Origin: Thermococcus kodakarensis KOD1
Lineage (GTDB): Archaea > Methanobacteriota_B > Thermococci > Thermococcales > Thermococcaceae
Direction of reading: 5' to 3'
NCBI RefSeq assembly: GCF_000009965.1
Contig: NC_006624.1
Location: 1,500,001-1,532,000 of the forward strand
Length of the DNA stretch: 32,000 nt
A model generated the notes under the pieces. That model was not told where the DNA came from and made no database searches. It saw only the letters and a program-made list of their open reading frames with translations. Numbering within the stretch: the stretch's first letter is position 1; each line of letters begins with the position of its first letter. Below, in pieces: positions 6,265-25,887 of the stretch. The position numbers and the translations under genes are program-made.

Positions 6265-7494
6265 ATGGTTAAAAGTTTTAGGGCATTTATCCTGGCGAGG
6301 GTGAGAATGGACAGAGTAACCAAACAGCTGATAGCCTCCAGACTCCTTTCACTGGCAAACGTTATTCCAAAAGACGAAAACAAACTCCTCTTCTACTCAA
6401 CTCCCGACGTATCTGACAATGCCCTAGCACTCTTTAAGTACGTTTCCAGAAAGACCAATGATTACGAGCTGGTCTGGCTCCTGAATAATCCAAGCTCTCC
6501 ATCCGTTAAGGTCCTCAAGGGAAGGTATTCTGAAGCGAAAACTGTGCCTCTCTACTCAATTAAGGGCCTAAAAGAGCTTTTGAGAGCCAAATTCATCATC
6601 ACTACTGATGTTCTACCCGTGACGCCCCATTTAGGTCAAAGGGTAATCCAGCTCTGGCACGGACTTCCGGGCAAGAAGACCGGCTACGAACATCCCCTAG
6701 GCATCAGGGATCTCTACCTCTACATGGACAGGTGGACGACTGACTTCGTAACAACCTCGGAACTTGTCGTCGGTTCGTTCGTGAGGCAGTTCATGATAAA
6801 CCCCCGGAAGTTCAGAATCCTCGGACAGCCCAGAAACGACGGCCTCTTTGACCACATGAAGGACTCAAAAGACACGCTCTCGTCAATACTGGGAATTGAT
6901 GTGGAGGCCTATGATGGCGTTGTTCTCTACGCACCAACTTACAGGTATACCAGCTACCTGAAAGACTTTGAGGCCAGCGTCAGGGCTGTTGAGAGCCTCT
7001 TTCGGAGAGACTTCATCGAGTTCATAAGAGAGGAGAACATCCTGCTCGTCATAAAGCCCCACAAACTAGTGGCTGAGGCGGTAAAATCCAAAGTAAAAGT
7101 AAGTTCGAACGTTGTTCTCCTCACAGACGAACCGCTTCAGTCACACCTTCTCAACATAAACGACATCATGGGGGCGTTTGATATCCTGATAACCGATTAC
7201 TCAAGCATCTTTGAGGACTACATACTCCTGAACAGGCCAATTGTATTCTACTTGCCAGATAGGGAAGCATTGGAGCAAAAAAGCGGCTTTCTCTTGCCGT
7301 ATGAATTTTTTGCTCCTGGGAAGAAGCCCGAAACTGTCGAAGACCTCAAAAGGAGCCTGAGAGAGTACATAGACGATCCCCAGATAGATGCAGAGTGGAG
7401 GGAAACTATCAAAAACCTCCTTTACGAAGTTGGGCAGGACAATAAATCTTCGGAGAGGGTTTACAAACACATAATAAAGGGGGAATTTGAATGA
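6265..7494 (+). CDS. CDP-glycerol/CDP-ribitol polyol-phosphotransferase family protein (TagF/TagB/TarL-like, Glyphos_transf)
   Basis: Family-typical blocks are present: QLWHGLPGKKTG, YAPTYR, IKPHK and ITDYSSIFEDYILLNRPIVFYLPD. An alternative in-frame ATG at 6307 follows GAGGGTGAG and may be the true start. Confidence 0.8.
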   Translation: MVKSFRAFILARVRMDRVTKQLIASRLLSLANVIPKDENKLLFYSTPDVSDNALALFKYVSRKTNDYELVWLLNNPSSPSVKVLKGRYSEAKTVPLYSIKGLKELLRAKFIITTDVLPVTPHLGQRVIQLWHGLPGKKTGYEHPLGIRDLYLYMDRWTTDFVTTSELVVGSFVRQFMINPRKFRILGQPRNDGLFDHMKDSKDTLSSILGIDVEAYDGVVLYAPTYRYTSYLKDFEASVRAVESLFRRDFIEFIREENILLVIKPHKLVAEAVKSKVKVSSNVVLLTDEPLQSHLLNINDIMGAFDILITDYSSIFEDYILLNRPIVFYLPDREALEQKSGFLLPYEFFAPGKKPETVEDLKRSLREYIDDPQIDAEWRETIKNLLYEVGQDNKSSERVYKHIIKGEFE

Positions 7495-8180
7495 CAACCC
7501 TTATCCTTCTCGCGGGCGGAATCGGAAAACGGGCAAACCTCGGCCTCCCCAAACAGTACTACAGGATCGAGGAGAAAATGATAATAGAGTACACGTTGGA
7601 AAACGTGTCAAAAGTCGGAGGCATAGACAGGCTAATCCTCGTCTCCAATCCTCAATTCATGGACACGGCCCTGGAACTGGCGGAAAGCTTTCCAAAGATA
7701 GAAACGGTCACGATAGGGGGGAAGACTAGGAACGAATCAATGTACAACGGATTTAAGGAAGTTCCACCGGGAGAGACCAAGGTTATAGTCCACGATGCCG
7801 TAAGACCATTCACACCCAGGTGGGTTTTTGAGAAAATAATAGACCTCCTGGACGAGATGGATGTGGTAACAACCGTGAACCCAATAACCGGGAACCTAAT
7901 AGAGCTGGATAATGGAAAGGTAAAGAGAATCCACGACCGTTCGAGATACGCCATGGGAGAGGCTCCCACAGGATACCGCTACGATGCCCTGAAGAAGACT
8001 CTTGAGACGGCACTATCACGGGGAATCCTGAACGAGATTCCCCACGACATCCTTCTCGCGATGGAGGCGGGATTCAACGTCCACGTGCTACATTGTAACT
8101 GCTTCAACCTGAAGATTACCTTCAGGGAAGACGTTGAGATCGCGAGGACCCTGATAAAAGTGCTGGAGGAGCAGCGTTGA
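7491..8180 (+). CDS. IspD/TarI-family cytidylyltransferase (probable CDP-polyol synthase)
   Basis: N-terminus MTTLILLAGGIGKRANLGLPKQYYRI matches the IspD/TarI signature AGGxGxR...PKQ. 229 aa. The start overlaps the stop of the TagF-like gene by 4 nt. Confidence 0.8.
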   Translation: MTTLILLAGGIGKRANLGLPKQYYRIEEKMIIEYTLENVSKVGGIDRLILVSNPQFMDTALELAESFPKIETVTIGGKTRNESMYNGFKEVPPGETKVIVHDAVRPFTPRWVFEKIIDLLDEMDVVTTVNPITGNLIELDNGKVKRIHDRSRYAMGEAPTGYRYDALKKTLETALSRGILNEIPHDILLAMEAGFNVHVLHCNCFNLKITFREDVEIARTLIKVLEEQR

Positions 8181-9094: not shown

Positions 9095-11395
9095 TCAGTC
9101 TCTTCTAAACACACCCCTGTCCAAGATTTTCTCGCCCTCGGCATAGGCGTACCTTATCACCGTTCCGTTGACCTCCGCCGGCAGCTCAAACTCTTTCAGC
9201 CCTTCGACGTTGTACCACTTCTCAAAGACCTTCGTGCCGTTGTCGAGGAAGCCCCAGATTCCGAGTCTCGTCCCGGTTGCGTTCTCGAACTGAAGGAGTG
9301 TCTCGCCACCCCTTCTCTCAACGACAACGTTCGGGTGCTTAAGCCTCAGGATTTTTATGATCCCTCCATCAGAGTAAACCAGCTCATAGGGCCCATCTGG
9401 CTTTATGAAGAGCCTCGCCAGGTTAGTGTTGAAGGCCTCCCCGTTCATGAGGATCGCGTAGTTGTAGTTGAGGTTGATGTAAAGGTAAGCCCCAGATTCG
9501 GACGGCGTTATGTTCGGTTTTATAATCTTATCTCCGTACTCGACGTAGACCTCCCGCGGTCCAAAGACATGGCCGCTGACGCTTATCTTCACGTCCCATT
9601 TTTCGCCAGGTCTTGCAACGACCGTGTAGCCCGAGTTCCTGAACACCAGCGCCCCCGCTGAAGAAACCATGGGCAGGACAACGAGGCCGTAGTTTTCACT
9701 CACGTTGCACCTCGAGCACATCATCGCGGTGTCGACTATCGTTCCAAACTTCAGAAAGTCGTAATAGGAGACGATAACGTAGTCGACGCCAAGGCCCATC
9801 GCCCAGTTCTCATCGCGCTTGCCGAGGTAATACAGGGCCACACCTGTATTGGGGGCTAGCTCAGCGACTGGTGCGCGTCTGGCATAATAGGTAACCCACG
9901 TTCCGTAGTCCCACCAGGCAAGAACGATATCGTTTTCGTTCGAGTTCTCGCCGAGCCACGTTAACGCCCTCTCCCAGTGCTCGTTCATAAACGGCTCCAC
10001 TGCCGCGACCTTCTCGAAACCGATTGCAGTGTCAACGGCGGGGACGAAGAGGAGAAGCCCAAGTGCAACGGCGAGTCCTTTTCTCCCCTCAAAGCGCGGC
10101 AGAATTTCATAAAGCTCCAACAACCCGATTCCTGCCATTAAGGCAACTCCCATAGAACCTATGAATAGAAACCTCGTCCAGGTCTTGATCATGTAGAGGC
10201 TGGGAAGGACAAGCCCGAGGAGCATGAAGTCCTGAACTCTGACTTTCCCGGGCCTGAACCGGAGGAAAAAGAGGGGGGCGAGGAAAAGACCAACGGCAAA
10301 CGCGCTCCAGAGGTCGTGGAAGGTCGACGGGCGGGTCTCGGATATTGGCCATTCATTGAATATTCCAAAGCCAGTTGAGAGGTCTTTCAGCCCTTCAAAC
10401 CTCGCGAAGAGGAGGTAAACGGCGAGAGCACCGAACACCAGGACTGTCAGGGTCCTCAGCCTTTTGTCCCTGATGAACTTCGAGAGCGCGAGGAGGGCCA
10501 GGAGTCCAGCCAGGGCGAGGGGGACCAGGTACTTAAGATGGAAGAGCAGGTAGGCGTCCCTTACCGTGGTGAGTTCCAGGGACAGCTTTTCGGCGACCGT
10601 TTTACTCAACCACCTGTCGTACCCGAGCATGCCATAGCCAACCCTGGCCCCAAGGTAGTTCGCAATAAGGGCGCCAATCGCCGTGGAGACTGTTAGGAGT
10701 ATCCCGTCGAGGATGTACCTGTCCCTACCGAGGAGAAAATCCCCGACTCCCAGAAAGACCGCGCTGGCCAGGAGAAACACGAAAATCGGGTAGTAAGCCT
10801 GCCAGAAAGCCGCCGCAAGGCCGCTTGCGAGGGCTGGCACAGCGTAGAAGGCAAGGCTTTTATGTCCAAGTCTTTCCCTCGTTGAAAACGCGTAGGCGAT
10901 TCCGAGAAGCGAAATAGAATACCAGAAGAGCATGTAGTTATCGCCGCGGTAGTAGCCGGCCATTGAGCGAAAGACGTGGCCGAAGCTAACCGCTAGAAAG
11001 AGCGAAGCAAAAAAGGCCCGCTTTTCATCGTAGAGTTTCAGCAGGGCCCAATAGAACACGGCTATCGTCAAGATCCCAAAGATGACGGGCGTTATCCTAA
11101 AAGCATTGTAGAGGGAAAGGCCAAAGATCTTCAGGAGTTTGTAAACATAAGCGGGCGTTGCCCACAGGCCGAGGGGGTGAAATGTCCTCATCTGAAAGCC
11201 CCAAGGTCCGTTTGCGATTGTGAAAAAATTGAGCCACTTGCCCGCTTTTAGGGCCTCCTCTATGTAAGCGAGGTGGAAATAAGGGTCGTAGCCTAAGAGA
11301 TATCTGAACCTTATGGGGATTAACCTGAGAATCAAGGCAACGGCCGTTATCATGGGGAGTGCGATTTTTGGCCTGAAGATTTTATTGAAATCCAT
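9095..11395 (-). CDS. aglB: Archaeal oligosaccharyltransferase AglB (STT3 family), short-type 766 aa
   Basis: WWDYG catalytic motif at aa 494-498 (nt 9902-9916, reverse complement tggtgggactacgga). DK motif DFLKFGTI (DxxKxxxI) about 50 aa downstream. N-terminal loop GYDPYFH (acidic motif) and WPISET (TIXE/SVSE-like). The N-terminal roughly 460 aa is multi-TM. Confidence 0.9.
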   Translation of the reverse strand: MDFNKIFRPKIALPMITAVALILRLIPIRFRYLLGYDPYFHLAYIEEALKAGKWLNFFTIANGPWGFQMRTFHPLGLWATPAYVYKLLKIFGLSLYNAFRITPVIFGILTIAVFYWALLKLYDEKRAFFASLFLAVSFGHVFRSMAGYYRGDNYMLFWYSISLLGIAYAFSTRERLGHKSLAFYAVPALASGLAAAFWQAYYPIFVFLLASAVFLGVGDFLLGRDRYILDGILLTVSTAIGALIANYLGARVGYGMLGYDRWLSKTVAEKLSLELTTVRDAYLLFHLKYLVPLALAGLLALLALSKFIRDKRLRTLTVLVFGALAVYLLFARFEGLKDLSTGFGIFNEWPISETRPSTFHDLWSAFAVGLFLAPLFFLRFRPGKVRVQDFMLLGLVLPSLYMIKTWTRFLFIGSMGVALMAGIGLLELYEILPRFEGRKGLAVALGLLLFVPAVDTAIGFEKVAAVEPFMNEHWERALTWLGENSNENDIVLAWWDYGTWVTYYARRAPVAELAPNTGVALYYLGKRDENWAMGLGVDYVIVSYYDFLKFGTIVDTAMMCSRCNVSENYGLVVLPMVSSAGALVFRNSGYTVVARPGEKWDVKISVSGHVFGPREVYVEYGDKIIKPNITPSESGAYLYINLNYNYAILMNGEAFNTNLARLFIKPDGPYELVYSDGGIIKILRLKHPNVVVERRGGETLLQFENATGTRLGIWGFLDNGTKVFEKWYNVEGLKEFELPAEVNGTVIRYAYAEGEKILDRGVFRRD

Positions 11396-11592: not shown

Positions 11593-12882
11593 ATGGCCAG
11601 CAGGCCCGTTCAAATCTTTCACATCTGGAAACAAGACTTCTATCGGGACGCCCTTATCATGATGGTCGCGGTCACACTCTCCAACTTCTTTAATTACCTC
11701 TACCAGCTCCTAATGGGAAGAATGCTCTCCCCCCAGGAATACGGTGAACTTTTCAGCCTGTTGTCCCTGTTCTACATATTCTCCGTGTTTTCAACAACCA
11801 TAAACACTTCCATAACCAAATTTACGGCAGTTTACTGGGCAAGAGAGGAATACGGAAAGATAAAATCGATCATAATTAAGGGGACGAAAGTCCTGGGACT
11901 CTTCGGTGTCCTGTTGTTCGGGTTGATAGCCCTAATCTCCCCCATGTTTTCCAGTTTTCTCCAGATTGAGGACAACACACTTTTGCTGGTTTTGTTTGCA
12001 TCGCTTCCCCTCTCAATGGTTCTCCCCATATACCAGGGAGCCTTAAGGGGTATGCAGAGGTTCTCGGCGTTGGGGCTGAGCACGTCTTCCTGGGCGTTCC
12101 TTAAGGTGCTCTTCGGTGTTTCCCTGGTTGCACTCGGCTACGGAGTTTTTGGAGGTCTACTAGGGATATTTTTGGCACACGTGGGGGCGTTTTTCTTAAC
12201 ACTAATGTTTCTAAAGGATCTGTTCCAGTATAGGGAAACAGGGGACCTTGAAATTCGAGACATCCTCTCATACAGCGGTCTCGCGTTTCTCGCAGTTCTT
12301 GCGTACACAACAATGTGGAATATCGACGTTATTTTGGTCAAGCACTACTTGTCCCCCTTGGAGGCGGGGCAGTATTCCGCCATCTCTGCGCTGGGAAAGA
12401 TTGTCCTTTTTGCACCCGGAGCGATTGGAATGGTCATATTCCCCAAGGCCGCCGAAAAGCACGAGAAGGGAGAGGAACACTTCCAAGTGCTGCTGAGGGG
12501 AATGGGCCTGACACTCCTGATTTCAGGGGGAATAGTTTTGGCCTACGCCCTGTTTCCGGAGTTCATTATCAAAATCATTTATGGGGCAAAATATCTCAAT
12601 GTCGCCCCGTATCTGTGGAGATACGGGCTGGCGATGATGTTCTTTTCGTTGGCGAGCGTAATGATTAATTATTCCCTGTCAATAGACAAGACAGATATTT
12701 TTCTTTACCTACTTGGACTGCTGACAACTGAGATAGTTATGCTATCCATTGGAAGTAAGAACATTTCTACGATTATAGACATGCTAATCGGCGTAAGTGC
12801 CTCAATACCCATTGTACTGTTTATATCTATTTGGAGGCAAAATAATGCCCAAGATATCAATACTGATGCCCGCTTACAATGA
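11593..12882 (+). CDS. Second MOP-superfamily flippase (Wzx-like polysaccharide biosynthesis protein)
   Basis: 429 aa multi-TM protein. The N-terminal pattern ALIMMVAVTLSNFFNYLYQLLMGRMLSPQEYGELF parallels the flippase at 2593. Confidence 0.75.
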   Translation: MASRPVQIFHIWKQDFYRDALIMMVAVTLSNFFNYLYQLLMGRMLSPQEYGELFSLLSLFYIFSVFSTTINTSITKFTAVYWAREEYGKIKSIIIKGTKVLGLFGVLLFGLIALISPMFSSFLQIEDNTLLLVLFASLPLSMVLPIYQGALRGMQRFSALGLSTSSWAFLKVLFGVSLVALGYGVFGGLLGIFLAHVGAFFLTLMFLKDLFQYRETGDLEIRDILSYSGLAFLAVLAYTTMWNIDVILVKHYLSPLEAGQYSAISALGKIVLFAPGAIGMVIFPKAAEKHEKGEEHFQVLLRGMGLTLLISGGIVLAYALFPEFIIKIIYGAKYLNVAPYLWRYGLAMMFFSLASVMINYSLSIDKTDIFLYLLGLLTTEIVMLSIGSKNISTIIDMLIGVSASIPIVLFISIWRQNNAQDINTDARLQ

Positions 12883-13570
12883 GGGGGAAAACCTTAGAAA
12901 GGCAGTTATAGAAACCATGAAAGAGTTAAAAGGGCTAGACTACGAGATAATCATAATCAACGATGGATCCAGGGACAATACCCCCGAAGTCGCAAGGGAA
13001 CTCTGCGAGTCATTTAGGAACGTCCAACTAGTGAGCTATTCAAAGAACCGGGGAAAAGGGTACGCTCTAAAAAAGGGCTTCGAAAAGAGCAACGGTGAGA
13101 TAATCGTGTTCTTCGATGCAGATTTGGATATTCCTCCTTCCCAAATAAAGAGGTTCATAAAGTTTCTTCAAAATGGATACGACGTTGTTATAGGTTCAAA
13201 ATACCTTCCGGGAGCTAGGGTGAGGTACTCCGAGAAAAGAAGGCTATTCAGCATCTGGTACAGAACGCTCGTTAAATTACTGCTTAAGCTTGACGTCAGC
13301 GATACTCAGGTCGGACTCAAGGTGTTTAAGAGAGAAGTCCTGGAAAAGGCATTTTCCAAAGTCTTAGTCAAGAAGTACGCCTTTGATGTTGAACTTTTAA
13401 CCGTGATAAATATGTATGGATACAAGATTTATGAACTGCCGATTAAGATTGAACATAAGAGTTTTAACTCCTCCATAAACTATAGGGCAATAGCAAGAAT
13501 GTTTTTGGACACTGCAGCAATAGTTTACAGAAAAAACATCTTGCATTACTACAATGGTGATAAAAGATGA
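12845..13570 (+). CDS. GT2 glycosyltransferase, DPM1/GtrB-like (candidate dolichyl-phosphate hexose synthase), soluble type
   Basis: MPKISILMPAYNEGENL...IIIINDGSRDNT...NRGKGYALKKGFEKSNGEIIVFFDADLD...VVIGSK. ATG 12845 lies 7 nt after GGAGG. The track start at GTG 12797 would add 16 codons inside the flippase. Confidence 0.85.
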   Translation: MPKISILMPAYNEGENLRKAVIETMKELKGLDYEIIIINDGSRDNTPEVARELCESFRNVQLVSYSKNRGKGYALKKGFEKSNGEIIVFFDADLDIPPSQIKRFIKFLQNGYDVVIGSKYLPGARVRYSEKRRLFSIWYRTLVKLLLKLDVSDTQVGLKVFKREVLEKAFSKVLVKKYAFDVELLTVINMYGYKIYELPIKIEHKSFNSSINYRAIARMFLDTAAIVYRKNILHYYNGDKR

Positions 13571-14646
13571 GGATACTATGGCTCAACTGGAAGGATATAA
13601 GACACCCCGAAGCAGGGGGAGCTGAGGTTTATACTCATGAGATTGCAAAAAGATTAGTTGAAAAAGGATATGAAGTTACCCTCTTCACTTCGTATTTTAA
13701 TGGAGCTGAAAAGGAGGACGAAATTGATGGTGTCAAAATAGTCAGAAGCGGAAAAATAGTTGGTCTCTTTGATACGGTGTATTCCCACGCAAAGAGGTTC
13801 TACAGGGATAACAAAAACGATTTTGATGTAGTAATAGATGAGATAAACACCCGGCCATTTCTAACTCCAAAATACGTTGATAAGCCAATAATAGCGCTGA
13901 TACACCAATTGGCAGTTGAGTTTTGGGATTATAAGACACCGTTTCCGATCAATACCCTTGGGAAACACATCCTAGAACCCTACTGGTTAAAGCATTACGT
14001 CAATGTTAAAACAATAACTGTCTCCGAATCCACGAGGAACGACCTAGAAAAGCTCGGATTTAAAGATATTGAGATAGTTTACAATGGATTGGATAGAAAT
14101 ATTTTAGAGAAGGTCCCCGAAAAGGAAGACGAGTTTACCGCTTTATTCGTTGGCAGGTTGACCCCAACTAAAAAGCCCGAAGACGCCGTGATAGCCTTTA
14201 AAATGCTCAATAAGGGAAAAATGTGGATTGTTGGCAGAGGCGAACTTATGGAAAAGCTTAAAAAAAGGCATAATAATGGAAACATCGAATTTAGGGGGTT
14301 CATCCCTGAGAAAGAAAAAATTGAACTCATGAAAAAAGCCCACGTATTGTTGGTTCCAGGAATAAGAGAGGGCTGGGGGAGGGTCGTGATCGAGGCCAAT
14401 GCCCTGGGAACCCCAGCAATCGGTTATAACGTTCCTGGACTCAGGGACTCAATAAAGCATAGATACAACGGCTTACTGTGTGATCCAAACCCCAAGGCAA
14501 TGAGCGAGGCCCTTAGAGTATTGCACGAAGATGAAGAACTCAAAAGGAGATTAAGTGAAAACGCTTTAAAGTGGGCCAAAAGGTTCAGCTGGGATGAGAG
14601 TGCGGAGAAGTTTGAGAGGGTATTAAACTCCTCAGTCGGTGAGTGA
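13567..14646 (+). CDS. GT4-family glycosyltransferase
   Basis: EX7E motif PGIREGWGRVVIEANALGTP and N-terminal EAGGAEVY. ATGA overlap with the upstream gene. Confidence 0.85.
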   Translation: MRILWLNWKDIRHPEAGGAEVYTHEIAKRLVEKGYEVTLFTSYFNGAEKEDEIDGVKIVRSGKIVGLFDTVYSHAKRFYRDNKNDFDVVIDEINTRPFLTPKYVDKPIIALIHQLAVEFWDYKTPFPINTLGKHILEPYWLKHYVNVKTITVSESTRNDLEKLGFKDIEIVYNGLDRNILEKVPEKEDEFTALFVGRLTPTKKPEDAVIAFKMLNKGKMWIVGRGELMEKLKKRHNNGNIEFRGFIPEKEKIELMKKAHVLLVPGIREGWGRVVIEANALGTPAIGYNVPGLRDSIKHRYNGLLCDPNPKAMSEALRVLHEDEELKRRLSENALKWAKRFSWDESAEKFERVLNSSVGE

Positions 14647-14647
14647 G

Positions 14648-15466
14648 ATGGAGAATAAAGAGATGCCGCTGGTCTCTGTGATTATTCCCACGTACAACTC
14701 AGAAAAAACTATTGGAAAGTGCTTAGAATCAATCAAAAACCAGACCTACAAAAACATAGAGGTTATCGTCGTTGACAATTTTTCCCAAGATAAAACGGTT
14801 GAGATATGTAAAAAATACAATGCAAAAGTTATCCAAATCAAGAGCGAGAGGACAAAAGCGAAGAATATCGGGTTAAAAAAGGCAAATGGGAAATACGTCC
14901 TTTTTATTGATTCTGACATGGGATTAACTCCAAAGGTTATAGAGGAGTGTGTTATATTAATTGAATCAGATCCCAAAATCGGGGGGATAATAATCCCAGA
15001 GCGCTCTGTCGGTAATAGTTATTGGGTGAAGGTTAGAGATTTCGAGAGAAGTTTCTATACTGGAACTGAAATAGAATCCGCACGATTTTTCAGAAGGGAT
15101 TTAGCTCTACAAGTAGGGGGATTTGATGAAGACGTTGTATTTTTTGAGGAGTCTACACTCCCTCAGAAGATTGAGAAACTTGGATTCAATGTCAAAGCCA
15201 GAATAGAATCTCATATTATTCACCATGAAGAAAACTTTTCACTAATAAAATGGCTCAAAAAGAAGTATTATTATGGACAGACAGCCAGAAGATATAAATC
15301 GAAATATAGGGAGTATGGAAACAAGCAGATAAGCTTGTTTTACAGGTTTGGGTTGTTTTTTAAAAGGAAGAGATTTTGGAGCAAACCTCATTTGGCTGCC
15401 GGAGTAATTGTTTTAAAGGGATTGGAGTATTTAGCCGCAAGTGTTGGATATTTAAAGTCATCTTAA
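14648..15466 (+). CDS. GT2-family glycosyltransferase
   Basis: PLVSVIIPTYNSEKTIGKCLESIKNQTYKNIEVIVVDNFSQD and KNIGLKKANGKYVLFIDSDM. ATG 14648 sits 1 nt after the upstream stop and is preceded by GGTGAG. The track start is GTG 14639. Confidence 0.85.
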   Translation: MENKEMPLVSVIIPTYNSEKTIGKCLESIKNQTYKNIEVIVVDNFSQDKTVEICKKYNAKVIQIKSERTKAKNIGLKKANGKYVLFIDSDMGLTPKVIEECVILIESDPKIGGIIIPERSVGNSYWVKVRDFERSFYTGTEIESARFFRRDLALQVGGFDEDVVFFEESTLPQKIEKLGFNVKARIESHIIHHEENFSLIKWLKKKYYYGQTARRYKSKYREYGNKQISLFYRFGLFFKRKRFWSKPHLAAGVIVLKGLEYLAASVGYLKSS

Positions 15467-15486
15467 ACTTACGAAGGTGGAGAAAA

Positions 15487-16653
15487 ATGAGGATCCCTCA
15501 GAGAGCCTTGTTCATAGCAAATGGCATTGGGGCTGAAAATGGAAAACCAGGAATAAGTGGTGGAGACATAAGATGGATAGAAATTGCTAAAAAATGGCAA
15601 GAGATGGGAATTGAAATCCATGTATTGACTCAAGACGCCGGAATAGAACTTTGCAAAAGAGTAGGGCTAACAGCTGAGTTCCACAGGATGAAAATGCCAA
15701 GCGAATATTCAATAAGGGGGTATCTTTTAAGGGCCCTTAATTCTTTCAGGATCCCCCAAGAACTCATGAGATTTGAGGGAATAATCTATGCTTCCACAGA
15801 GCATTGGTATGATGTTATTCCTGGAGCATTAATTAAAAGGAAAAATCCTCAGAACAGATTCGCAATAGTAGCTCATTGGGTTGCACCACTAATAAGGAAA
15901 GGAACTTCGGCTATAAATAGCATCCTTTTTTATATTAACCAACGCGTGGGATATTTTGTTGGTAAGAGATACTCAGATGTTTTTTTAGCAGTATCCAAAC
16001 CAACTGGAAATGATTTAAAAAGAATAGGGATACCTGAGTCCAAAATAAGGGTAGTTGAAGCAGGTGTAGATTATGAGAGAATAAGACAAATTTCATCCAA
16101 AATAAAAGAGAAACAATTCGATGGAGTATTTATGAAAAGATTTGACGGTACTAAAGGCGTCTTCGATGTAGTGGAAATATGGGAACATGTAGTCTCAGAG
16201 ATTCCAGATGCAAAACTGATTTTGATCGGTCACGGAACCAAAACAAATGTGAATAAATTAGAAAGAATGATTAAGGATAAGAAGCTCGAAGAAAACGTAA
16301 AAATTCTGGGTCCAATATATGATTTCGAAGAGAAATTTAAGACACTGGCAAAAAGCAAAGTGTTTCTCTTACCTAGCTATGAAGAGAATTGGGCAATAGT
16401 AATCGGAGAGGCAATGGCCGCAGGATTACCTGTAGTATGTTACGATCTACCCGAAATACGACCAATTTGGAAGGACAACGTTATCTGGATTCCAAGAGGA
16501 AATAAAAAAGAATTCGCTAAGAAAGTTGTTGAATTGCTTGAGAATGAGAATGTTGGAAAAAGAGTAGGAGAAAATGGAGCCAGATTTGTTAAGAGATATG
16601 ATTGGAGAAAAATAGCTGGAAAAGAGCTGATGATAATCCAAAGGGGGGTCTGA
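15487..16653 (+). CDS. GT4-family glycosyltransferase
   Basis: EX7E motif PSYEENWAIVIGEAMAAGLP. ATG 15487 is preceded by GGTGGAG. The track start at TTG 15376 overlaps the upstream gene by 91 nt and encodes junk-like sequence. Confidence 0.8.
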   Translation: MRIPQRALFIANGIGAENGKPGISGGDIRWIEIAKKWQEMGIEIHVLTQDAGIELCKRVGLTAEFHRMKMPSEYSIRGYLLRALNSFRIPQELMRFEGIIYASTEHWYDVIPGALIKRKNPQNRFAIVAHWVAPLIRKGTSAINSILFYINQRVGYFVGKRYSDVFLAVSKPTGNDLKRIGIPESKIRVVEAGVDYERIRQISSKIKEKQFDGVFMKRFDGTKGVFDVVEIWEHVVSEIPDAKLILIGHGTKTNVNKLERMIKDKKLEENVKILGPIYDFEEKFKTLAKSKVFLLPSYEENWAIVIGEAMAAGLPVVCYDLPEIRPIWKDNVIWIPRGNKKEFAKKVVELLENENVGKRVGENGARFVKRYDWRKIAGKELMIIQRGV

Positions 16654-16655
16654 TT

Positions 16656-17666
16656 TTGATCCAAAAAGAGGCCATTCCCAAACTAATTACTATAGAGACA
16701 AATAAAGAGATAATCCCAGGGTTTTCAATTTCGCCTTTTTTAGTAGATGCCAAGGACACCACAGAAAAAACACCATTCTGGTTCAGATTTCAAGTGGATT
16801 CTAAGTTTCATATTAACAAACATGATGTCGTTAAAGTATTTGATAGATTTATGCTTCTAAGAGATGGTTCTATATACTACTCCAATCACATACTTCCAAA
16901 AATCATGCTTAATTTGGTATTTAGACCCAATACTAATGAGATTCAAGTTAATCCCACATACTTCTTATTAGTAAAAGAGAAGATTGGATCGGCATATCCA
17001 CCTGGAGTATTGTTATTAGATTATGTCTTTGTTGAACTTCTTGTGCGTAACTTCTTTGTATTACATGCTAGCGGTATTTCGGATAATGATGGTGCATATT
17101 TATTTATTGCTCCTCCAAATACGGGTAAGACCACTACTGTGTTACAATTTCTAAATAATCATAAAAATTTATTATACGTCGGAGAAGACACTGTGATCAT
17201 AGATGCTAAACGGAATTTTGTATACCCTACACCTCATACTTCAACTTTCTTCCATCATGAAACTCGCTTTGGGCATATTGAAGGACTATTTCGTGTAAAA
17301 TATAAACCAACAGGAAGATCCCTTTTTAGGGGTAGAATACTAGATACTCCTCAGAATATTTCCTCAATATTTTTACTTCAGAAAGGAATAGATGACAAAA
17401 TTATTCCCTTAGAGGATGTTGACCATAGATATATTATGAAAATACTACTTTCAATTCAACGGTACGAATTTTCCTGGTTCAAAAACCCTTTGCTACGTGC
17501 ATCATCCTTTTTATTAGATGATTGGTACAACCTTGATGAATTACTAAACAAAGAAGAAGAACTTCTTTGGAAACTATTAAAACGAAACCAAGTTTTTTTA
17601 GTTCGCAGTTCAAATAGTTTTCGATTTTATAACATAATAAGAGATCATTTAGATATAAAACCGTAG
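16656..17666 (+). CDS. P-loop protein resembling HPr kinase-related kinases (HprK C-terminal-like fold); function unknown
   Basis: LHASGISDNDGAYLFIAPPNTGKTTTVLQFL...LLYVGEDTVIID has the HprK-type arrangement: LHA, strand, Walker A (APPNTGKT), helix, then an acidic xxED/DD. There is no ATG near the 5' end. TTG 16656 lies 2 nt after the upstream stop and follows AAGGGGGGT; TTG 16602 is the longest option. Confidence 0.5.
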   Translation: MIQKEAIPKLITIETNKEIIPGFSISPFLVDAKDTTEKTPFWFRFQVDSKFHINKHDVVKVFDRFMLLRDGSIYYSNHILPKIMLNLVFRPNTNEIQVNPTYFLLVKEKIGSAYPPGVLLLDYVFVELLVRNFFVLHASGISDNDGAYLFIAPPNTGKTTTVLQFLNNHKNLLYVGEDTVIIDAKRNFVYPTPHTSTFFHHETRFGHIEGLFRVKYKPTGRSLFRGRILDTPQNISSIFLLQKGIDDKIIPLEDVDHRYIMKILLSIQRYEFSWFKNPLLRASSFLLDDWYNLDELLNKEEELLWKLLKRNQVFLVRSSNSFRFYNIIRDHLDIKP

Positions 17667-17682
17667 TAAACAGGGGGTAAAT

Positions 17683-20600
17683 ATGGAAAGGATGCGTTAT
17701 ACATATCTACGAGTTGGTTTTATATACGCACTAGTGTCTTTCCTCTCAAATGCTTACTATATTTTTTCTCCAGGCGTTATCGGATTTAGACATGACTGGA
17801 GAATCCCGTACCTCCCTGGCCAAGTGTGGGACAGGTTTTTTGAAGCAATATTTACTTGGAATTCTATCTCTGGTAGGGGGGTGTCGGGAGTTCCAAACAC
17901 TTTATTATATGAAAGACTCTTTGAGCTCGCACTAGCAGTTTTGGTCAGATTTAATGGTGAGGTATTATCAAAGATTATTGTTCCGATTATTATGTTGGTT
18001 TCTGCTTTGACCATGTTCTATTTAGGCAAGGTACTAAGATTCTCTAGTAAGTCCGCATTCTTTATGGGTCTTTTCTATATGTTGACTCCTGTACTTTATA
18101 ATAGAATCATAGCTGGATATCATCTCTATAATTTTGCATATGCAATCTCACCATTGTTTTTTGCATTTTTACACAAATATGTTTATTACAAACAAAGATG
18201 TTCATATATTCTCACAGCCGCATTAGTATTTGGCATGTCGGCTGTTCAAGTGCAGTTTCCCCCAATGTTAGCGTTTATGGCGGCTCTGTACTTGTTGATA
18301 TTTGCTATATCAAAAAGAAACTACTCCTCACTTATAATATCATTAAAAGCCATCGCTATTCTTATAGTGCTATTTATCATACTTAACTCTTTTTGGATTT
18401 TAACAATGTTTATGAATCCAGGATCTAAACTTGTGATAAATAAAGCAGCACCAATTGATTATCATGAAATTATGAACGCTCCTAAGCTTCTTCCAGCATT
18501 TTTAATGACTGGATATAGTCATGTTTATGATCCATTTTATCTCTATACTCACAATAAACTGCCCAGTTTAGTCATATACTCTCTGTTATCCTTGTCAATT
18601 CTTTCACTTATAGCAAGCATCTTTGCTATTAACAAAAAAGAGCAAGCATATCTCGCTGTGTACTCACTCTCATTGCTTTCTATTGGATTATTCTTTGTGT
18701 CTGCTCTAAACGGACCATTCCCCCAATTGTGGAAACTTCTCTACCTTAAAATTCCAATTCTTTCAGTATTTCGTGAGGTATATCATTCAATGTTTATAGT
18801 AACATTTGCATATACTTTACTTGTTGGAATGCTCATAGAAGAGCTTCACAAGAAACTCTCCTCTCCTAGATCGAAAAATCTATTAGTAGTGATATTATTG
18901 TTTATAATTCTATCTTCTGGATACCCTTCGTTAAATTCGTTTATGCATCAATTAAACGTATTAAATTATGGGAACAGCGACATTGAGGTGTATAATTTTC
19001 TGAAAAATGAATCAGGGATATATCGCGTAGTTTATGTACCATCCTTAAGCCCTATAAGATACCCTACTATAAATCGGGGCTCTGTGGACTTGATGATTAA
19101 ATATAGCCCAAAACCAACGTTTCCACAGCATGTGACTAGGGTATTCCCTTCCGAAGGGATTTTACAATATTATGTGTTGACCTCAATTGAACACCCTGAA
19201 AGAATAGAGAATATTCATGAATTACTCGGAAAGATCAGTGTAAAATATATAATTTGTAGACCCAATTGTACATCCTATTACCCATATTACGTTCCAATGT
19301 TGAGATACCTCCAAAAAGTTTATGGTAGTACTATACTATACCACCGCTGGTTTAATACAAGCCTTCGATGTGACAATATAAAACATAGGGGACAAATATT
19401 GAACTTTAACAACATAAATTTAGTTCAGATAGATAATTCTCCGTTTATCAATGTAGGCGGGACTCCTTTGGTTTTCTCTTCATTTGACGATTTGTTGTCC
19501 GGAGTTCGTTATTTAGATAATAATTTTGCAATAATTTTGAATGTCCATTTAAGAGAATTTCCACTTATTAATAATATCAGCAACACATTTGTATTCACTA
19601 ACGAACCCTTGTATGATTTATACTTGATGGACTCCTATTTGAGCACTACTTTATTTGTAACGCCAAACGCACCAAACAACAGACCTGAGAAGAGCTGGGC
19701 AACTGATTTGCTTAGTTGGTATATTAATCCCTCCATTGCTATAGCCCCTCTCTATGGAGAAAATACAGTACTCACGTGGGCCCCTCCCACGGCAGATTTA
19801 CCGGAAAACATGCCTATATCCAATTTAATTGCCAGTTGGGACTTTACATCCCAAGATCAAGTTAAAGCATGGGAAAATGTCACTCCAAAAATCCAGTTTA
19901 GTGCTATTCAAACAATTTCATGGGACGAAAGTGTGCAAGCTCTTAGAGCAGAACTTTACAATTCAACTTGGGTCTGGAAGACAATTAGATCCCCTCTGAT
20001 TCCGGTTAAATATGATCACGTCTACAGATTTATGTTTAAAGTTAAAGGTCAAAATACTAATGTAGTTCATGCTTATGTTAAAGAATATGATGTCAATAAA
20101 ACGCTGATCAAAGGCTCTTTCTTATATTACCCTTTTATAGGTGATGGAACTTTCAACTGGAAAACAATTTCTTTCAACTACCAGCCCCAAAGTGAAGATA
20201 CCCGCTATATCCAACTCCAGATATGGCATGGCCACGAAACAGATAAACCGCTACCTAACATAATCTGGATAGATGACGTGAAAGTCTATGACATAACAAA
20301 CTATACCAAACCCGTAACTCTGGACATTCCCTTCAAAGTCGATAAAACTGACAATTACAAGCTTTTCATCCGCTACTTTAAGAACCAGAAGGGCGGCGCA
20401 ATAAGGGTTTATTTAGATGGAACTCCAATTTATATCAAGACCAAAGACCAGCTTAACAAATTCGTTTGGGAAGATCTAGGAACATTCAAGCTTGAAAAAG
20501 GAAAACACAAGATAGTCCTTGAGAACGTTAGGGGATTTAACGCAGTTAATCTATTTGCGTTGATACCTGAAAAAGAGTACAATAAAGCAAGAAAAGAGGC

Positions 20601-21411
20601 CATAGAACTATTGCAGAACAAAACCATAATATATCTCTTCGAAGCAGAATCCGATTTATACAGGGAAAACACCGAGATTATAAAAGACTTCAACGCAAGT
20701 AACGGAGAGGCCATAAAATTCGACCAGAAGGGAAAAGCATGGCAAAACGTGGAGATAGTGAAAAACAGTACCTACAGACTTGCATTAAAGGGCAATGGTA
20801 CATTTAATATATCCATAGGAGACTATAAGTATGTTTTAACTGTAAACAATTCAACATTTGAATATACCCCACTGTTCTACTTGAGAAATGGAGAATACAA
20901 ATTAGAAATAACCCCTACATCAAAGGACGCCCTCTTGGACGTGGTCTGGCTCTACTCAACTGATAAAAACGAAACACTCGAAGAACTCTTCCAAACAAAT
21001 GAAACTCCCGCCACAGTCCAGGACTACACAAAGGTCAACCCAACCCTCTGGAAGGTCAAAGTCAACGCAACAAAGCCCTTCATGTTAACCTTCGCCGAAT
21101 CCTATGATCCGCTGTGGGAGGCGAGAGTTTACAAGGATGGCAAACTCGTGGAAAAAGTCTCCCCAGTTCCGGTATACGGAGTCATCAACGGCTTCTGGAT
21201 TAATCAGACAGGGGACCTTGAAATAGTCCTGAGATACACTCCTCAGGACTGGTTCGAGAGGGGACTGATGGTATCCTTAACAACTTTCCTCCTCAGTGTA
21301 TTCTACATCTTCTACGACTGGAGAAGAGAAAAGGGGGACAAATGGGCCAAGAGGCTAGAGAAGAAGTTCAAAAAACTAACCAGCAAAGTTAAACGAAAAT
21401 TAAGCCCTTAA
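17683..21411 (+). CDS. Giant (1242 aa) membrane protein, GT-C-like (YfhO/AftD-like), with a large extracytoplasmic region and a C-terminal TM anchor
   Basis: The N-terminal roughly 420 aa has many TM segments, with an acidic first loop (GFRHDWRIPYLPGQVWDRF). The central part has jelly-roll/CBM-like signatures (FNWKTISFNY...IIWIDDVKVYD). The C-terminal block SYDPLWEARVYKDGKLV...VNGFWINQTGDLEIVLRYTPQDWFERGLMVSLTTFLL resembles the conserved end of YfhO/AftD-type GT-C enzymes. The protein ends in a basic tail. The CDS itself is near certain; the function is inferred. Confidence 0.6.
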   Translation: MERMRYTYLRVGFIYALVSFLSNAYYIFSPGVIGFRHDWRIPYLPGQVWDRFFEAIFTWNSISGRGVSGVPNTLLYERLFELALAVLVRFNGEVLSKIIVPIIMLVSALTMFYLGKVLRFSSKSAFFMGLFYMLTPVLYNRIIAGYHLYNFAYAISPLFFAFLHKYVYYKQRCSYILTAALVFGMSAVQVQFPPMLAFMAALYLLIFAISKRNYSSLIISLKAIAILIVLFIILNSFWILTMFMNPGSKLVINKAAPIDYHEIMNAPKLLPAFLMTGYSHVYDPFYLYTHNKLPSLVIYSLLSLSILSLIASIFAINKKEQAYLAVYSLSLLSIGLFFVSALNGPFPQLWKLLYLKIPILSVFREVYHSMFIVTFAYTLLVGMLIEELHKKLSSPRSKNLLVVILLFIILSSGYPSLNSFMHQLNVLNYGNSDIEVYNFLKNESGIYRVVYVPSLSPIRYPTINRGSVDLMIKYSPKPTFPQHVTRVFPSEGILQYYVLTSIEHPERIENIHELLGKISVKYIICRPNCTSYYPYYVPMLRYLQKVYGSTILYHRWFNTSLRCDNIKHRGQILNFNNINLVQIDNSPFINVGGTPLVFSSFDDLLSGVRYLDNNFAIILNVHLREFPLINNISNTFVFTNEPLYDLYLMDSYLSTTLFVTPNAPNNRPEKSWATDLLSWYINPSIAIAPLYGENTVLTWAPPTADLPENMPISNLIASWDFTSQDQVKAWENVTPKIQFSAIQTISWDESVQALRAELYNSTWVWKTIRSPLIPVKYDHVYRFMFKVKGQNTNVVHAYVKEYDVNKTLIKGSFLYYPFIGDGTFNWKTISFNYQPQSEDTRYIQLQIWHGHETDKPLPNIIWIDDVKVYDITNYTKPVTLDIPFKVDKTDNYKLFIRYFKNQKGGAIRVYLDGTPIYIKTKDQLNKFVWEDLGTFKLEKGKHKIVLENVRGFNAVNLFALIPEKEYNKARKEAIELLQNKTIIYLFEAESDLYRENTEIIKDFNASNGEAIKFDQKGKAWQNVEIVKNSTYRLALKGNGTFNISIGDYKYVLTVNNSTFEYTPLFYLRNGEYKLEITPTSKDALLDVVWLYSTDKNETLEELFQTNETPATVQDYTKVNPTLWKVKVNATKPFMLTFAESYDPLWEARVYKDGKLVEKVSPVPVYGVINGFWINQTGDLEIVLRYTPQDWFERGLMVSLTTFLLSVFYIFYDWRREKGDKWAKRLEKKFKKLTSKVKRKLSP

Positions 21412-21545: not shown

Positions 21546-22403
21546 ATGACGGATAAAATATTGTCTGCAGACTCAAAGTCACTTGTTATTGTACGTAAAA
21601 AGCAGTTTAAGGCAAACATTGGTGTCGCTTTATTGTTCGAAGACCCCAAAAAATTCAAAGAGAATTACATCAACTATTTTGAGAGCCTTAAAGGTAATCT
21701 CAACACTAAGAATCCAAGATACGTATTCAAAAGCAAAGACATAAAGTCGCTCTTTGGTCATGATAAATCTAACGAAATTATAGAGGACTTTGTTTCCCTA
21801 ATCAATGAATCTAAAGTCACCGTTAGTTTTGTGTTCTCTATATTCAACACGAAGCGTTTAAGGGAGGTTAAATATTACTCCAAGGACAATACAGTAAAGA
21901 CGGAAAAGCCCATGAAGTTTATAGACAAGCTAACGAGTTATTTCTCATACATAACCGCATGGAAATCAATAAGAGAGCTTGGACTTAACGGCATCAAAGT
22001 TTATCTGGACAATTTCGATGAACAGGAATATACCTACGCATGGGATGATATAACAGTATCTAACCGGCCAGTTATCTTCCCAAAGGGGGATCAAGTTAAT
22101 CTTTTTATCTCCACTGCAGACATCATAGTCGAATACGTTTATAGGAAAATTATGGAACAAAACATCCGCCTGGGAGTTAGAGAGATGTATGAGCTTAATG
22201 AAAAGCACTTAGGTCTTGATAATTTTAAAGTATCTTATAGTGGAAACAGAGATGTTAAATACCTAGCACCATATTCACACAGGAAGATTCCAATTAGAGA
22301 CTACCTCGCAAGACCAATGCTTTATGTTTTAACCGAAGGATTAATTGGGAAAGGAAGAAAGAACAGTTATAGAGAATTCCCCGTCCTTCCAATATCTTCT
22401 TAG
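21546..22403 (+). CDS. Hypothetical protein, first part of a probably frameshifted gene
   Basis: 285 aa AT-rich ORF with no motif I can assign securely. There is a weak DUF3800-like pattern (ALLFED near the N-terminus; GDQVNLFISTADIIVEYVYRKI later). TATA-like TTTAATAA lies at 21504-21511. Confidence 0.6.
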   Translation: MTDKILSADSKSLVIVRKKQFKANIGVALLFEDPKKFKENYINYFESLKGNLNTKNPRYVFKSKDIKSLFGHDKSNEIIEDFVSLINESKVTVSFVFSIFNTKRLREVKYYSKDNTVKTEKPMKFIDKLTSYFSYITAWKSIRELGLNGIKVYLDNFDEQEYTYAWDDITVSNRPVIFPKGDQVNLFISTADIIVEYVYRKIMEQNIRLGVREMYELNEKHLGLDNFKVSYSGNRDVKYLAPYSHRKIPIRDYLARPMLYVLTEGLIGKGRKNSYREFPVLPISS

Positions 22404-24520: not shown

Positions 24521-25887
24521 ATGGAAGAGAGAACTAAACTAGTCCTAATCTGGGTTGTGATGATCTTTATCCCCTTATTCACATTGAGGCTTTTCCAGGA
24601 TGAGATGTTATACTTGAACATCTCAATGAAAGTACTCCACTTCGAATTTCTGCCCAGATCTTCGCTCGTTTTCATTCTAACGTCGCCCCTGATGGCATTT
24701 GATAGTGTCGACCTCAGGGTGTTTCTACCCAGGGCCGCAACAGCCTTCGCAACGCTAACAGACACAATCCTGATCTATGAAATTGCCAAAAGATATCATG
24801 GAAAAAAAGCTGGATTCCTGAGTTCTCTAATGTTCCTTTTTTCATTTGTAGCTTTAAGATACGGGGCAAGATACACTCTGGAGCCATGGGGGACGCTCTT
24901 CATACTCTCGGCAATCTATTATTTCGAGGAAAAGCCCCTTACAGCATCTCTTTCAATGGGCTTGGCCTTTTGTGCGAGGGAAACTTGGCTCACAACGTAT
25001 CCTTTCTTTTTGGTGTACGCGTGGAGAAAAAGGAGAAAAGAGTTCTTGAAAATTCTGATGATCTCGGCATTTCCCATAGTATTGAATTTCCTGTTTATAG
25101 CATCGATCAGTGTATACCAAAGTCCCATAGGCTACAATGCGCGAGACACATTAAATGGGGAGCCCGCTACATTGTGCTGAGACTAGCGCGGAGCTGGCTT
25201 GAATTTTCAGTTGCTTATGTCCTGATAGTTGTTGGGTTTATATACGGGACAAAACACGACAAAACACATAGGGACATCCTGTTAATGATACTGCCATCAG
25301 TGATAACGCTGAACGGAGTTAATGGATTCATCCTTAACGGCCCGTTCGAGCGCTACACCTTTGGACCATTGGCGTTAATGAGCATCTTCTCTGGGTATGG
25401 CATAATCGAGCTCTACAACAACTTTAAATCGAAAATTAAGCCCCTGAATATTCTAACTGTCGAGAAATGGATAGCGCTGTTTCTGATTGTACAGCTCATT
25501 CTCCTCAACGCCGCCGTCCTAAAGCTCAGCGACATAGGGGCAAAGGGAATTCAAGACTACGGCTACTGGTACGATAGGAAGGTGTTCAACATCCTAAAAG
25601 AGAGGGCAGCCCCGGAAGAGTTTTTCGTTGGAACCCCCCATCCCGCACTCATTGGTTTTAAAAATTGGACCTGGGCAGACAGGAACATAAAGAAGGCCGT
25701 AGAGCTCGATCCAGACTGGTTGATAACGTTCAAGAGCTGGGTTAATTTTAGGGAGAATCCCCAAGAAATCCGTGAGCTTGAAATCTATTCCGTGGGCCCA
25801 TACCTGCTAATTCATGCTGAGGAGAAAGGTGCTATAAAGAAATACGTCGTTTCAAGTGATTTAAAGCTCTGGAAATTCAGGAAATAA
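24521..25887 (+). pseudogene. ArnT/PMT-like GT-C glycosyltransferase split by a single frameshift (ORFs 24521-25180 and 24886-25887)
   Basis: The first ORF is multi-TM with the first-loop motif RLFQDEMLY (the DE motif typical of GT-C family 39/83). The second ORF looks protein-like only from about ARYIVLRLARSW onward. Adding one G to the G4 run at 25157-25160 gives ...ARDTLNGGARYIVLRLARSW... and a continuous ORF of about 455 aa. Confidence 0.65.

Follow-up and report, generated by a model that had tools for sequence, protein, structure and literature searches.

The PEPCK/HprK superfamily of P-loop proteins offers precedents for kinases that act on small molecules as well as on peptides: FomB turns fosfomycin-P into fosfomycin-PP with ATP and Mg (PMC4790336), and the HprK homologues of lasso-peptide clusters phosphorylate a C-terminal Ser, a phosphate that in pseudomycoidin goes on to receive a hexose (PMC8498205). 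Here we examine a 336-residue protein encoded in a 32,000-nucleotide stretch of the Thermococcus kodakarensis KOD1 genome (NC_006624.1, positions 1,500,001 to 1,532,000; hereinafter the window), which an earlier note, made from the sequence alone, had described as an HprK-related P-loop protein within an archaeal glycosylation operon. We find that it displays the PEPCK/HprK fold but belongs to none of the named families of that fold, and that its relatives reside in glycan assembly loci of both bacteria and archaea, a setting from which we tentatively propose a kinase acting in glycan assembly. In the literature that we searched, HprK-like proteins have no published role in archaeal glycosylation or in exopolysaccharide (EPS) clusters, in agreement with the earlier note, which knew of none described in archaeal glycosylation.

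Fold, catalytic core and family of the protein

The AlphaFold2 model, built from a 108-sequence alignment, is a confident one (predicted local distance difference test, pLDDT, 95.7; predicted template modeling score, pTM, 0.93) with an N-terminal β-rich domain followed by a C-terminal P-loop domain (Table 1). When compared to the PDB with Foldseek, its top 31 matches are all ATP-dependent phosphoenolpyruvate carboxykinases (ATP-PEPCK; E ~1e-5, TM(query) 0.36–0.47), with alignments of 280–390 columns that cover both domains. HPr kinase/phosphorylase (HprK/P) comes next (E ~1e-3, probability 0.97–1.0), and the top 50 matches are exclusively PEPCK and HprK/P (probability 0.87–1.0). As modeled, the whole-protein fold is closer to ATP-PEPCK, in both domains, than to HprK/P, and the N-terminal domain is PEPCK-like rather than HprK-like. 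A first model from 5 sequences (pLDDT 61) had given weak lipocalin/START-like matches for the N-terminal part, and these were gone with the 108-sequence model.

Within the P-loop domain, the model runs from a strand (residues 133–136) through His137, two strands (139–143 and 146–151), the P-loop (152–159) and a helix (158–168) to a further strand (173–176) that leads into Glu177–Asp178. We aligned the family profile by means of hhalign with the sequences of L. casei HprK/P and E. coli PEPCK, both verified against PDB entries. Residues 136–180 align with the former (probability 93.7%, E=1.9e-7, 43 columns) and residues 136–190 with positions 231–279 of the latter (probability 81%, E=1.2e-5, 48 columns). 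These E values, together with the top 50 Foldseek matches, indicate that the resemblance exceeds chance. The earlier note had recognized the order of the HprK/P core, namely a His motif, a strand, Walker A, a helix and an acidic pair, in the segment LHASGISDNDGAYLFIAPPNTGKTTTVLQFLNNHKNLLYVGEDTVIID, which corresponds to residues 136–183, and the model reproduces that order. Moreover, the His and Walker A motifs align with those of both HprK/P and PEPCK and are conserved in the family, and the catalytic acidic pair, for which the note had proposed a check on an alignment, is likewise aligned and conserved.

Across the 108 members of the alignment, position 137 is His in 89 (82%) and Tyr in 13. 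The Walker A motif retains Gly157 in 107 members and both Lys158 and Thr/Ser159 in all 108, while the acidic pair shows Glu/Asp177 in all 108 and Asp178 in 104 (96%). This conservation of the His, Lys, Thr and acidic positions (82–100% of the 108) argues for an active enzyme. Other family-conserved positions are Asn99, Tyr102 (codon 16959–16961) and a basic residue at 107 in the N-terminal domain, along with the polar Asp122, Asp183 and Asn277. Past the acidic pair, the family carries motifs of its own (DG..Y..PxTST), with no counterpart of P-x-T-S-T detected in HprK/P; the hhalign alignment ends at residue 180, and the HprK/P signature region (the ...EIRGLGI... loop), like the HPr-binding helices at the C-terminus of HprK/P, lies beyond it. 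A further motif, (N/Q)-R-x-E-F, shows Asn/Gln268 in 92%, Arg269 in 72%, Glu271 in 79% and Phe272 in 84% of the members.

On its own, the 336-residue protein has no Pfam match at E≤0.1 and only marginal NCBIfam matches at residues ~129–202 (ScmC, E=0.056; HprK-related kinase A, E=0.093), which reach 12.8 bits against a curated cut-off of 125 for ScmC (TIGR04249) and 11.8 against 200 for HprK_rel_A (TIGR04352). The HPr(Ser) kinase model TIGR00679 gave nothing at E≤1, the FomB model (NF000361) no match, and a PDB sequence search with this single protein found nothing. The tie to the HprK/PEPCK superfamily comes instead from the 108 relatives recovered by an exhaustive profile search, which we scanned individually with NCBIfam and Pfam: 47 match HprK-related kinase A, 25 FomB kinase (best E=4.8e-9; all below threshold), 23 HprK-related kinase B, 22 ScmC, 16 HPr(Ser) kinase (TIGR00679), 15 the Pfam Hpr_kinase_C model (PF07475), 7 the NCBIfam PEPCK model and 5, weakly, the Pfam PEPCK_ATP model (PF01293). 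The window protein itself lies below the thresholds for HprK/P, PEPCK, HprK-related A and B, ScmC and FomB. Given that every curated threshold failed and that the HprK signature loop is without a counterpart, we conclude that it represents a new, unnamed family of the known PEPCK/HprK fold and is not HprK. Thus, what survives of the label "HprK-related" is the P-loop fold shared by HprK/P and PEPCK, and not membership in any HprK-type family. Four bacterial members that we looked up at NCBI are annotated as "hypothetical protein", and UniProt automatically labels one of them ScmC.

The size of the family became apparent only by exhaustive searching. A word-indexed protein search returned five close clusters (42–100% identity) and, with a 25-sequence profile, 6 proteins only, whereas the exhaustive profile search of 1.84 billion representatives recovered 676 clusters (counted at 50% identity) at E≤1e-3, with 189 at E≤1e-10. 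Most of the 676 are 330–360 residues long and align over their full length. When species-representative genomes were scanned with a motif-selected alignment subset, 87 relatives were obtained. The family is not archaea-specific, being found across many bacterial phyla as well as archaea: full-length members occur in Nitrososphaera, Saccharimonadia, Paceibacterota, Actinomycetota, Armatimonadota, several Clostridia, Verrucomicrobiota and Planctomycetes, as well as in Bacteroidota (Lutibacter, Brumimicrobium aurantiacum) and Bacillota (Pueribacillus, Halobacillus yeomjeoni). Separately, about 55 Nitrososphaeraceae/Thermoproteota loci (L041–L096) match over residues ~120–195 only, that is, the P-loop core with APP[ND]TGKT; their products apparently constitute a separate archaeal HprK-like family.

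The open reading frame (ORF) of 336 codons exists on the forward strand as the earlier note had placed it. The frame begins already at TTG 16602, and the TGA of the preceding GT4 gene (16651–16653) ends 2 nt ahead of TTG 16656. Comparison with a 71% identical orthologue (locus L001) makes TTG 16656 a well-supported start, because the orthologue's ATG aligns in register with it, a G5 run precedes that ATG at the same position as the G6 run of the window, and a public protein collection lists the product with the identical 336-residue start; the reading of a TTG start after a G6 run in place of an ATG is thereby borne out. The product has a predicted pI of 9.1 and a mass of 39.5 kDa, and prediction of transmembrane segments found none in it, pointing to a soluble protein.

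Glycan assembly loci in bacteria and archaea

We counted neighbors of the family in 20 bacterial and archaeal genomes. The gene immediately downstream encodes a GT4 glycosyltransferase in 13 of 18 loci and the one immediately upstream in 11 of 17, as against 11 of 88 genes lying two to four places away on either side (Fisher p=7e-7 for +1 and 2e-5 for −1; relatedness among part of the loci makes these values optimistic). On the downstream side the GT4s belong to one subfamily (mean identity 37.7%) and on the upstream side to another (39%), with 26% identity between the two groups. The resulting triad, GT4(up-type)–kinase-fold–GT4(down-type), recurs in several bacterial phyla (L019–L037), often with overlapping gene junctions. 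NCBIfam gave no name to the flanking GT4s, all matches being far under the cut-offs. The wider bacterial neighborhoods include a PglC-like Bac_transf protein, a DegT aminotransferase, a PglD-like acetyltransferase, a PglF-like dehydratase, Wzx, and Wzy or EpsG, and by these predicted products are typical of Wzx/Wzy heteropolysaccharide loci starting with an amino-dideoxy sugar. With GT4 contexts in bacterial and archaeal loci alike, the family constitutes, in both domains of life, a module of loci for glycan assembly, and the GT4–X–giant GT-C arrangement is the variant found in the window and its close relatives. The family as such is thus not archaeal: it is widespread in bacteria, with GT4 rather than GT-C partners.

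The gene belongs to a low-GC operon of the window whose members overlap or are separated by short gaps (Table 1). The earlier note had placed it between a GT4 and a GT-C-like giant, and this position is confirmed, with Pfam supporting the GT4. The GC fraction is 0.388 for the operon and 0.326 for the kinase-fold gene, as compared to ~0.48 in the flanks, which suggests that the flippase–glycosyltransferase–kinase–giant operon is a horizontally acquired island.

The giant protein has about 8 or more predicted N-terminal transmembrane segments. Its L001 orthologue exceeds the threshold of the Pfam model PTPS_related (27.7 bits, E=1.2e-6), which we take to be a member of the GT-C clan, while the giant of the window reaches only E=0.009. 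An Asp right after the first transmembrane segment is conserved in 9 of 9 homologues, and the giants share, besides the N-terminal transmembrane domain, a C-terminal block (residues 1114–1209 in the window, '...ESYDPLWEARV...') that runs into the hydrophobic end. The middle region of one of them (L014, 11031–14816) carries a faint CBM_4_9 label. The overall architecture presumably resembles that of YfhO/AftD-type GT-C enzymes. Other assemblies list a 492-residue product, which raised the prospect of a broken gene; tblastn shows an intact 1242-residue ORF, and the shorter product is an index artifact.

In the four close metagenomic relatives, a GT4 gene lies upstream wherever the contig reaches that far, and a giant homologue (49–74% identity) lies downstream in all four, the genes being usually overlapping or closely spaced. 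An NCBI metagenome-assembled genome (L014) encodes a 26% identical kinase-fold relative followed by a collinear giant homologue of 1260 residues, and giant-type proteins are also found near family members in one Nitrososphaera and one Saccharimonadia locus. We rejected an obligatory pairing of the two genes: around a 1371-residue giant homologue on another metagenome contig (L098, 5953–10065, JAEAMF010001073.1; hidden Markov model E=1e-50), a stretch of 6 kb lacks any kinase-fold gene, which makes the two genes separable, and most bacterial members of the kinase-fold family occur without a giant. The survey of co-occurrence with the GT-C gene that the note had called for therefore yields a pairing seen in all close relatives and in L014 but not an obligatory one.

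Further features of the window lie around the operon. An AglB-like gene (9095–11395, −) and further glycosylation genes are located near it. Directly after the giant, a 285-residue protein (21546–22403, +) has no Pfam match in the copy of the database that we searched and bears a precomputed DUF8203 (PF26630) label. At 25153–25156, three assemblies from independent sequencing runs (L010, L011, L013) read A4, but the window reads A3. This is the sole difference in 21,011 bp between the window and these assemblies, and it splits a gene for a 455-residue PMT_2-like (GT-C-type) protein into overlapping ORFs at 24521..25180 and 24886..25887; it is either an error in the reference sequence or a strain difference.

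Table 1. Positions in the window of the kinase-fold gene, its domains and motifs, and the surrounding operon.
Feature	Position	Strand	Evidence or remark
Kinase-fold gene	16656..17666	+	336 aa; TTG start, TAG stop 17664–17666
G6 run, Shine–Dalgarno-like element	16643..16648	+	7 nt before TTG 16656; read in the sequence
N-terminal β-rich domain (~residues 1–115)	16656..17000	+	Model strands 2–98; Foldseek PEPCK span
C-terminal P-loop nucleotide-binding domain (~residues 116–336)	17001..17663	+	AlphaFold2 model, Foldseek, hhalign
His137 of the 'LHA' motif	17064..17066	+	Aligns with the MHG His of L. casei HprK/P and His232 of E. coli PEPCK
Walker A/P-loop APPNTGKT (residues 152–159)	17109..17132	+	Lys158 on the HprK/P GKS Lys and PEPCK Lys254; Thr159 on PEPCK Thr255
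Acidic pair Glu177–Asp178	17184..17189	+	On DD of HprK/P 'ADDRV' and PEPCK Asp268–Asp269
Motif P-x-T-S-T (PHTST, residues 193–197)	17232..17246	+	Pro193 97/108, Thr195 86/108, Thr/Ser197 94/108
Motif (N/Q)-R-x-E-F (QRYEF, residues 268–272), helix of the C-terminal domain	17457..17471	+	Conservation in the 108 members
Glu300, near-invariant	17553..17555	+	94% of the 108 sequences
Low-GC operon: Wzx-like flippase, GT2, GT4, GT2, GT4, kinase-fold gene, giant GT-C-like gene	11593..21411	+	Overlaps or short gaps; Pfam
Upstream GT4, 388 aa from ATG 15487	15487..16653	+	Glycos_transf_1 E=1.6e-29, Glyco_transf_4 E=9.6e-14
Giant GT-C-like membrane protein, 1242 aa	17683..21411	+	N-terminal multi-transmembrane region, large extracytoplasmic part, C-terminal region with a terminal hydrophobic stretch

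Proposed function and competing explanations

From its sequence, the protein appears to be a soluble, cytoplasmic and catalytically intact phosphotransferase, which probably adds phosphate during glycan assembly. Combining the fold with the gene context, we tentatively favor an ATP-dependent kinase that acts in the cytoplasm on a glycan or lipid-linked intermediate; what we infer here is that it acts as a kinase, what kind of acceptor it uses and in which order the steps follow. In such an enzyme, ATP-Mg would be bound at the P-loop via Lys158, Thr159 and the Glu177–Asp178 pair, with His137 and Asp178 assisting the transfer of the γ-phosphate to a sugar hydroxyl. The acceptor sugar might be part of a lipid-linked oligosaccharide, or its precursor, built by the adjacent GT4s at the cytoplasmic face of the membrane. 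The phosphorylated intermediate could then be flipped by the Wzx-like protein of the operon, and outside the cell it would pass to the GT-C-like giant in this archaeon and to a Wzy-type machinery in bacteria.

Several observations weigh against this proposal. To our knowledge, those stand-alone HprK-like kinases that have been characterized target proteins or peptides and not sugars, and the known glycan kinases WaaP, KdkA and POMK use other folds. His137 is not universal, being replaced by Tyr or another residue in 19 of the 108 members. In the bacterial loci, no phosphatase or transferase of phospho-substituents is consistently found near the gene, the counts behind the GT4 enrichment take in related loci, and the L098 giant does without a kinase-fold neighbor. 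Further, the phosphate described for the T. kodakarensis N-glycan is a myo-inositol phosphate (PMC11407970, citing Hirao et al. 2023). The window also codes, near AglB, for a homologue of the TagF-like CDP-glycerol glycerophosphotransferase (Pfam E=2e-60) whose gene overlaps that of an IspD-like cytidylyltransferase (6265–8180, +). The myo-inositol phosphate is more simply assigned to this candidate pair, which would act via a CDP-alcohol donor, and hence provides no evidence for the kinase-fold protein.

One competing explanation is that the protein has a P-loop of unrelated origin, as in a fragment of AAA+, ABC or RecA type, and that its HprK likeness reflects a chance Walker A match. The best PDB sequence matches of the family profile are indeed AAA+ proteins (a VCP-like ATPase, E=7e-7), but these are confined to 26–31 residues at profile positions 150–180 ('PPxTGKT'), the 50 best Foldseek matches to the confident model include no AAA+ or ABC structure, and the acidic pair, placed 19 residues past the Lys on the next strand, follows the PEPCK/HprK arrangement. 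Placement in an AAA or ABC family, which had been named beforehand as the outcome that would count against the fold, did not occur, the matches being limited to Walker A and none being structural; we consider this explanation rejected, with next to no probability left to it. A fairly unlikely but more substantial alternative is a Ser/Thr kinase, or kinase/phosphorylase, that regulates or marks a protein or peptide of the pathway, for which a GT4 next to it, one of the giant's cytoplasmic loops or a substrate glycoprotein would be candidate targets. Judged by sequence, the nearest stand-alone relatives with a characterized function phosphorylate Ser in proteins or peptides (HprK/P, HprK-related A and B, ScmC), and the lasso-peptide homologues of HprK modify a C-terminal Ser (PMC8498205). 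Tight coupling to specific GT4 subfamilies would also fit an enzyme–regulator pair. However, the HprK/P signature region past the acidic pair is undetectable, with hhalign aligning 43 columns only; neither a conserved small ORF or precursor peptide nor a PqqD-like partner adjoins the gene, and the 32-kb window has no HPr-like gene. The full-length fold, in addition, matches PEPCK over both domains, and the two-domain arrangement of PEPCK encloses a small-molecule site between the domains.

The FomB precedent raises the alternative of a kinase acting on a phosphate monoester, converting a polyprenyl- or dolichyl-phosphate-linked compound or a sugar-1-phosphate to the diphosphate, or of a polyprenol/dolichol kinase that supplies the carrier lipid. 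The 25 of 108 relatives that match the FomB model (best E 4.8e-9) speak for it, as do the formation of a diphosphate from a monophosphate by FomB (PMC4790336), the use of both dolichyl phosphate (Dol-P) and dolichyl diphosphate (Dol-PP) carriers by archaea (PMC11407970) and the absence of a recognizable phosphoglycosyl transferase from the operon of the window by Pfam. Yet the 336-residue protein itself has no FomB match, the bacterial loci already hold PglC-like initiating transferases that make undecaprenyl diphosphate (Und-PP)-sugar directly, a soluble protein lacking a membrane anchor would be an unusual polyprenol kinase, and a patchy, locus-restricted distribution fits a decorating enzyme better than carrier supply; we regard this alternative as quite unlikely. 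Very unlikely, in our estimate, is an NTPase or a pyrophosphate-dependent phosphorylase that forms no phosphorylated product and would serve the GT4 or GT-C enzymes as a subunit for ATP-driven assembly, chaperoning or gating. The conserved and often translationally coupled adjacency to glycosyltransferases, the variation of His137 in 18% of the members and the phosphorylase mode of HprK/P itself are consistent with such a role, but the conservation of the acidic pair together with N99, Y102, D183, PxTST, NRxEF and E300 suggests a defined substrate site, and we know of no motor or chaperone with the PEPCK/HprK fold.

Returning to the glycan or lipid-linked-intermediate kinase, a more specific version, which we advance as a distinctly improbable conjecture, is that of a new class of glycan kinases: the phosphate would go onto one sugar within the lipid-linked repeat unit, a neighboring transferase would glycosylate on or next to it, and the product would be a phosphodiester-bridged surface glycan. 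The dedicated transferase would be the 'down-type' GT4 in bacteria and, in the Thermococcus-type clade, the GT-C-like giant, and the pathway would form, by analogy, a carbohydrate counterpart of the kinase-plus-glycosyl chemistry of pseudomycoidin. Were this class to exist, this archaeon would possess, alongside the pathway of AglB, a second glycan pathway, one that contains phosphate.

More generally, polysaccharide and N-glycan loci have been heavily mined, and yet this family of 676 clusters has neither a Pfam nor an NCBIfam model. A kinase fold that had not been connected with glycan assembly before here occupies a fixed place between two conserved GT4 subfamilies. Should the protein phosphorylate a glycan or a carrier lipid, glycan decoration would gain a new class of enzymes, and a recurrent unknown gene of capsule/EPS loci would be explained. 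Since T. kodakarensis is genetically tractable and the structure of its N-glycan is solved, the function is directly testable.

Comparison with described enzymes

HprK/P (1JB1, 1KKL, 1KO7; PF07475, TIGR00679) shares with the window protein the same core order of His, strand, Walker A, helix and acidic pair. In contrast, past the acidic pair the 336-residue protein has neither similarity to HprK/P nor a recognizable signature loop, and its context is glycan biosynthesis and not the phosphotransferase system (PTS) or carbon catabolite control. The ATP-PEPCK PckA (1AQ2, 1YVY, 2PC9; PF01293) provides the best structural match, extending over both domains, but is ~540 residues long as compared to 336; there is no Pfam match, the sequence likeness is limited to 48 columns, and the gene context is unrelated to gluconeogenesis. 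WaaP, WaaY, KdkA, POMK and FAM20B use ATP to phosphorylate a sugar in a glycan that is still growing. These are functional analogues only, with protein-kinase-like or other folds and not the PEPCK/HprK fold, and the Pfam, NCBIfam and Foldseek results for the window protein include no likeness to any of them.

FomB (NF000361) shows that the superfamily includes ATP/Mg-dependent small-molecule kinases (PMC4790336), although no phosphonate biosynthesis genes are found near the window gene. The HprK-like kinases of clusters for peptides made on the ribosome and modified after translation (RiPPs), such as those of paeninodin and pseudomycoidin (TIGR04352, TIGR04355, TIGR04249), are of similar size and are likewise single-gene accessory kinases in biosynthetic clusters. 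They differ in their partners: neither the window gene nor its relatives have a precursor peptide, PqqD-like protein, lasso cyclase or radical-SAM protein nearby, their neighbors being glycosyltransferases and sugar-modifying enzymes. Nevertheless, the pseudomycoidin kinase suggests a possible analogy, in that the phosphate that it installs is then glycosylated (PMC8498205), and here too a kinase-fold gene adjoins that of a glycosyltransferase.

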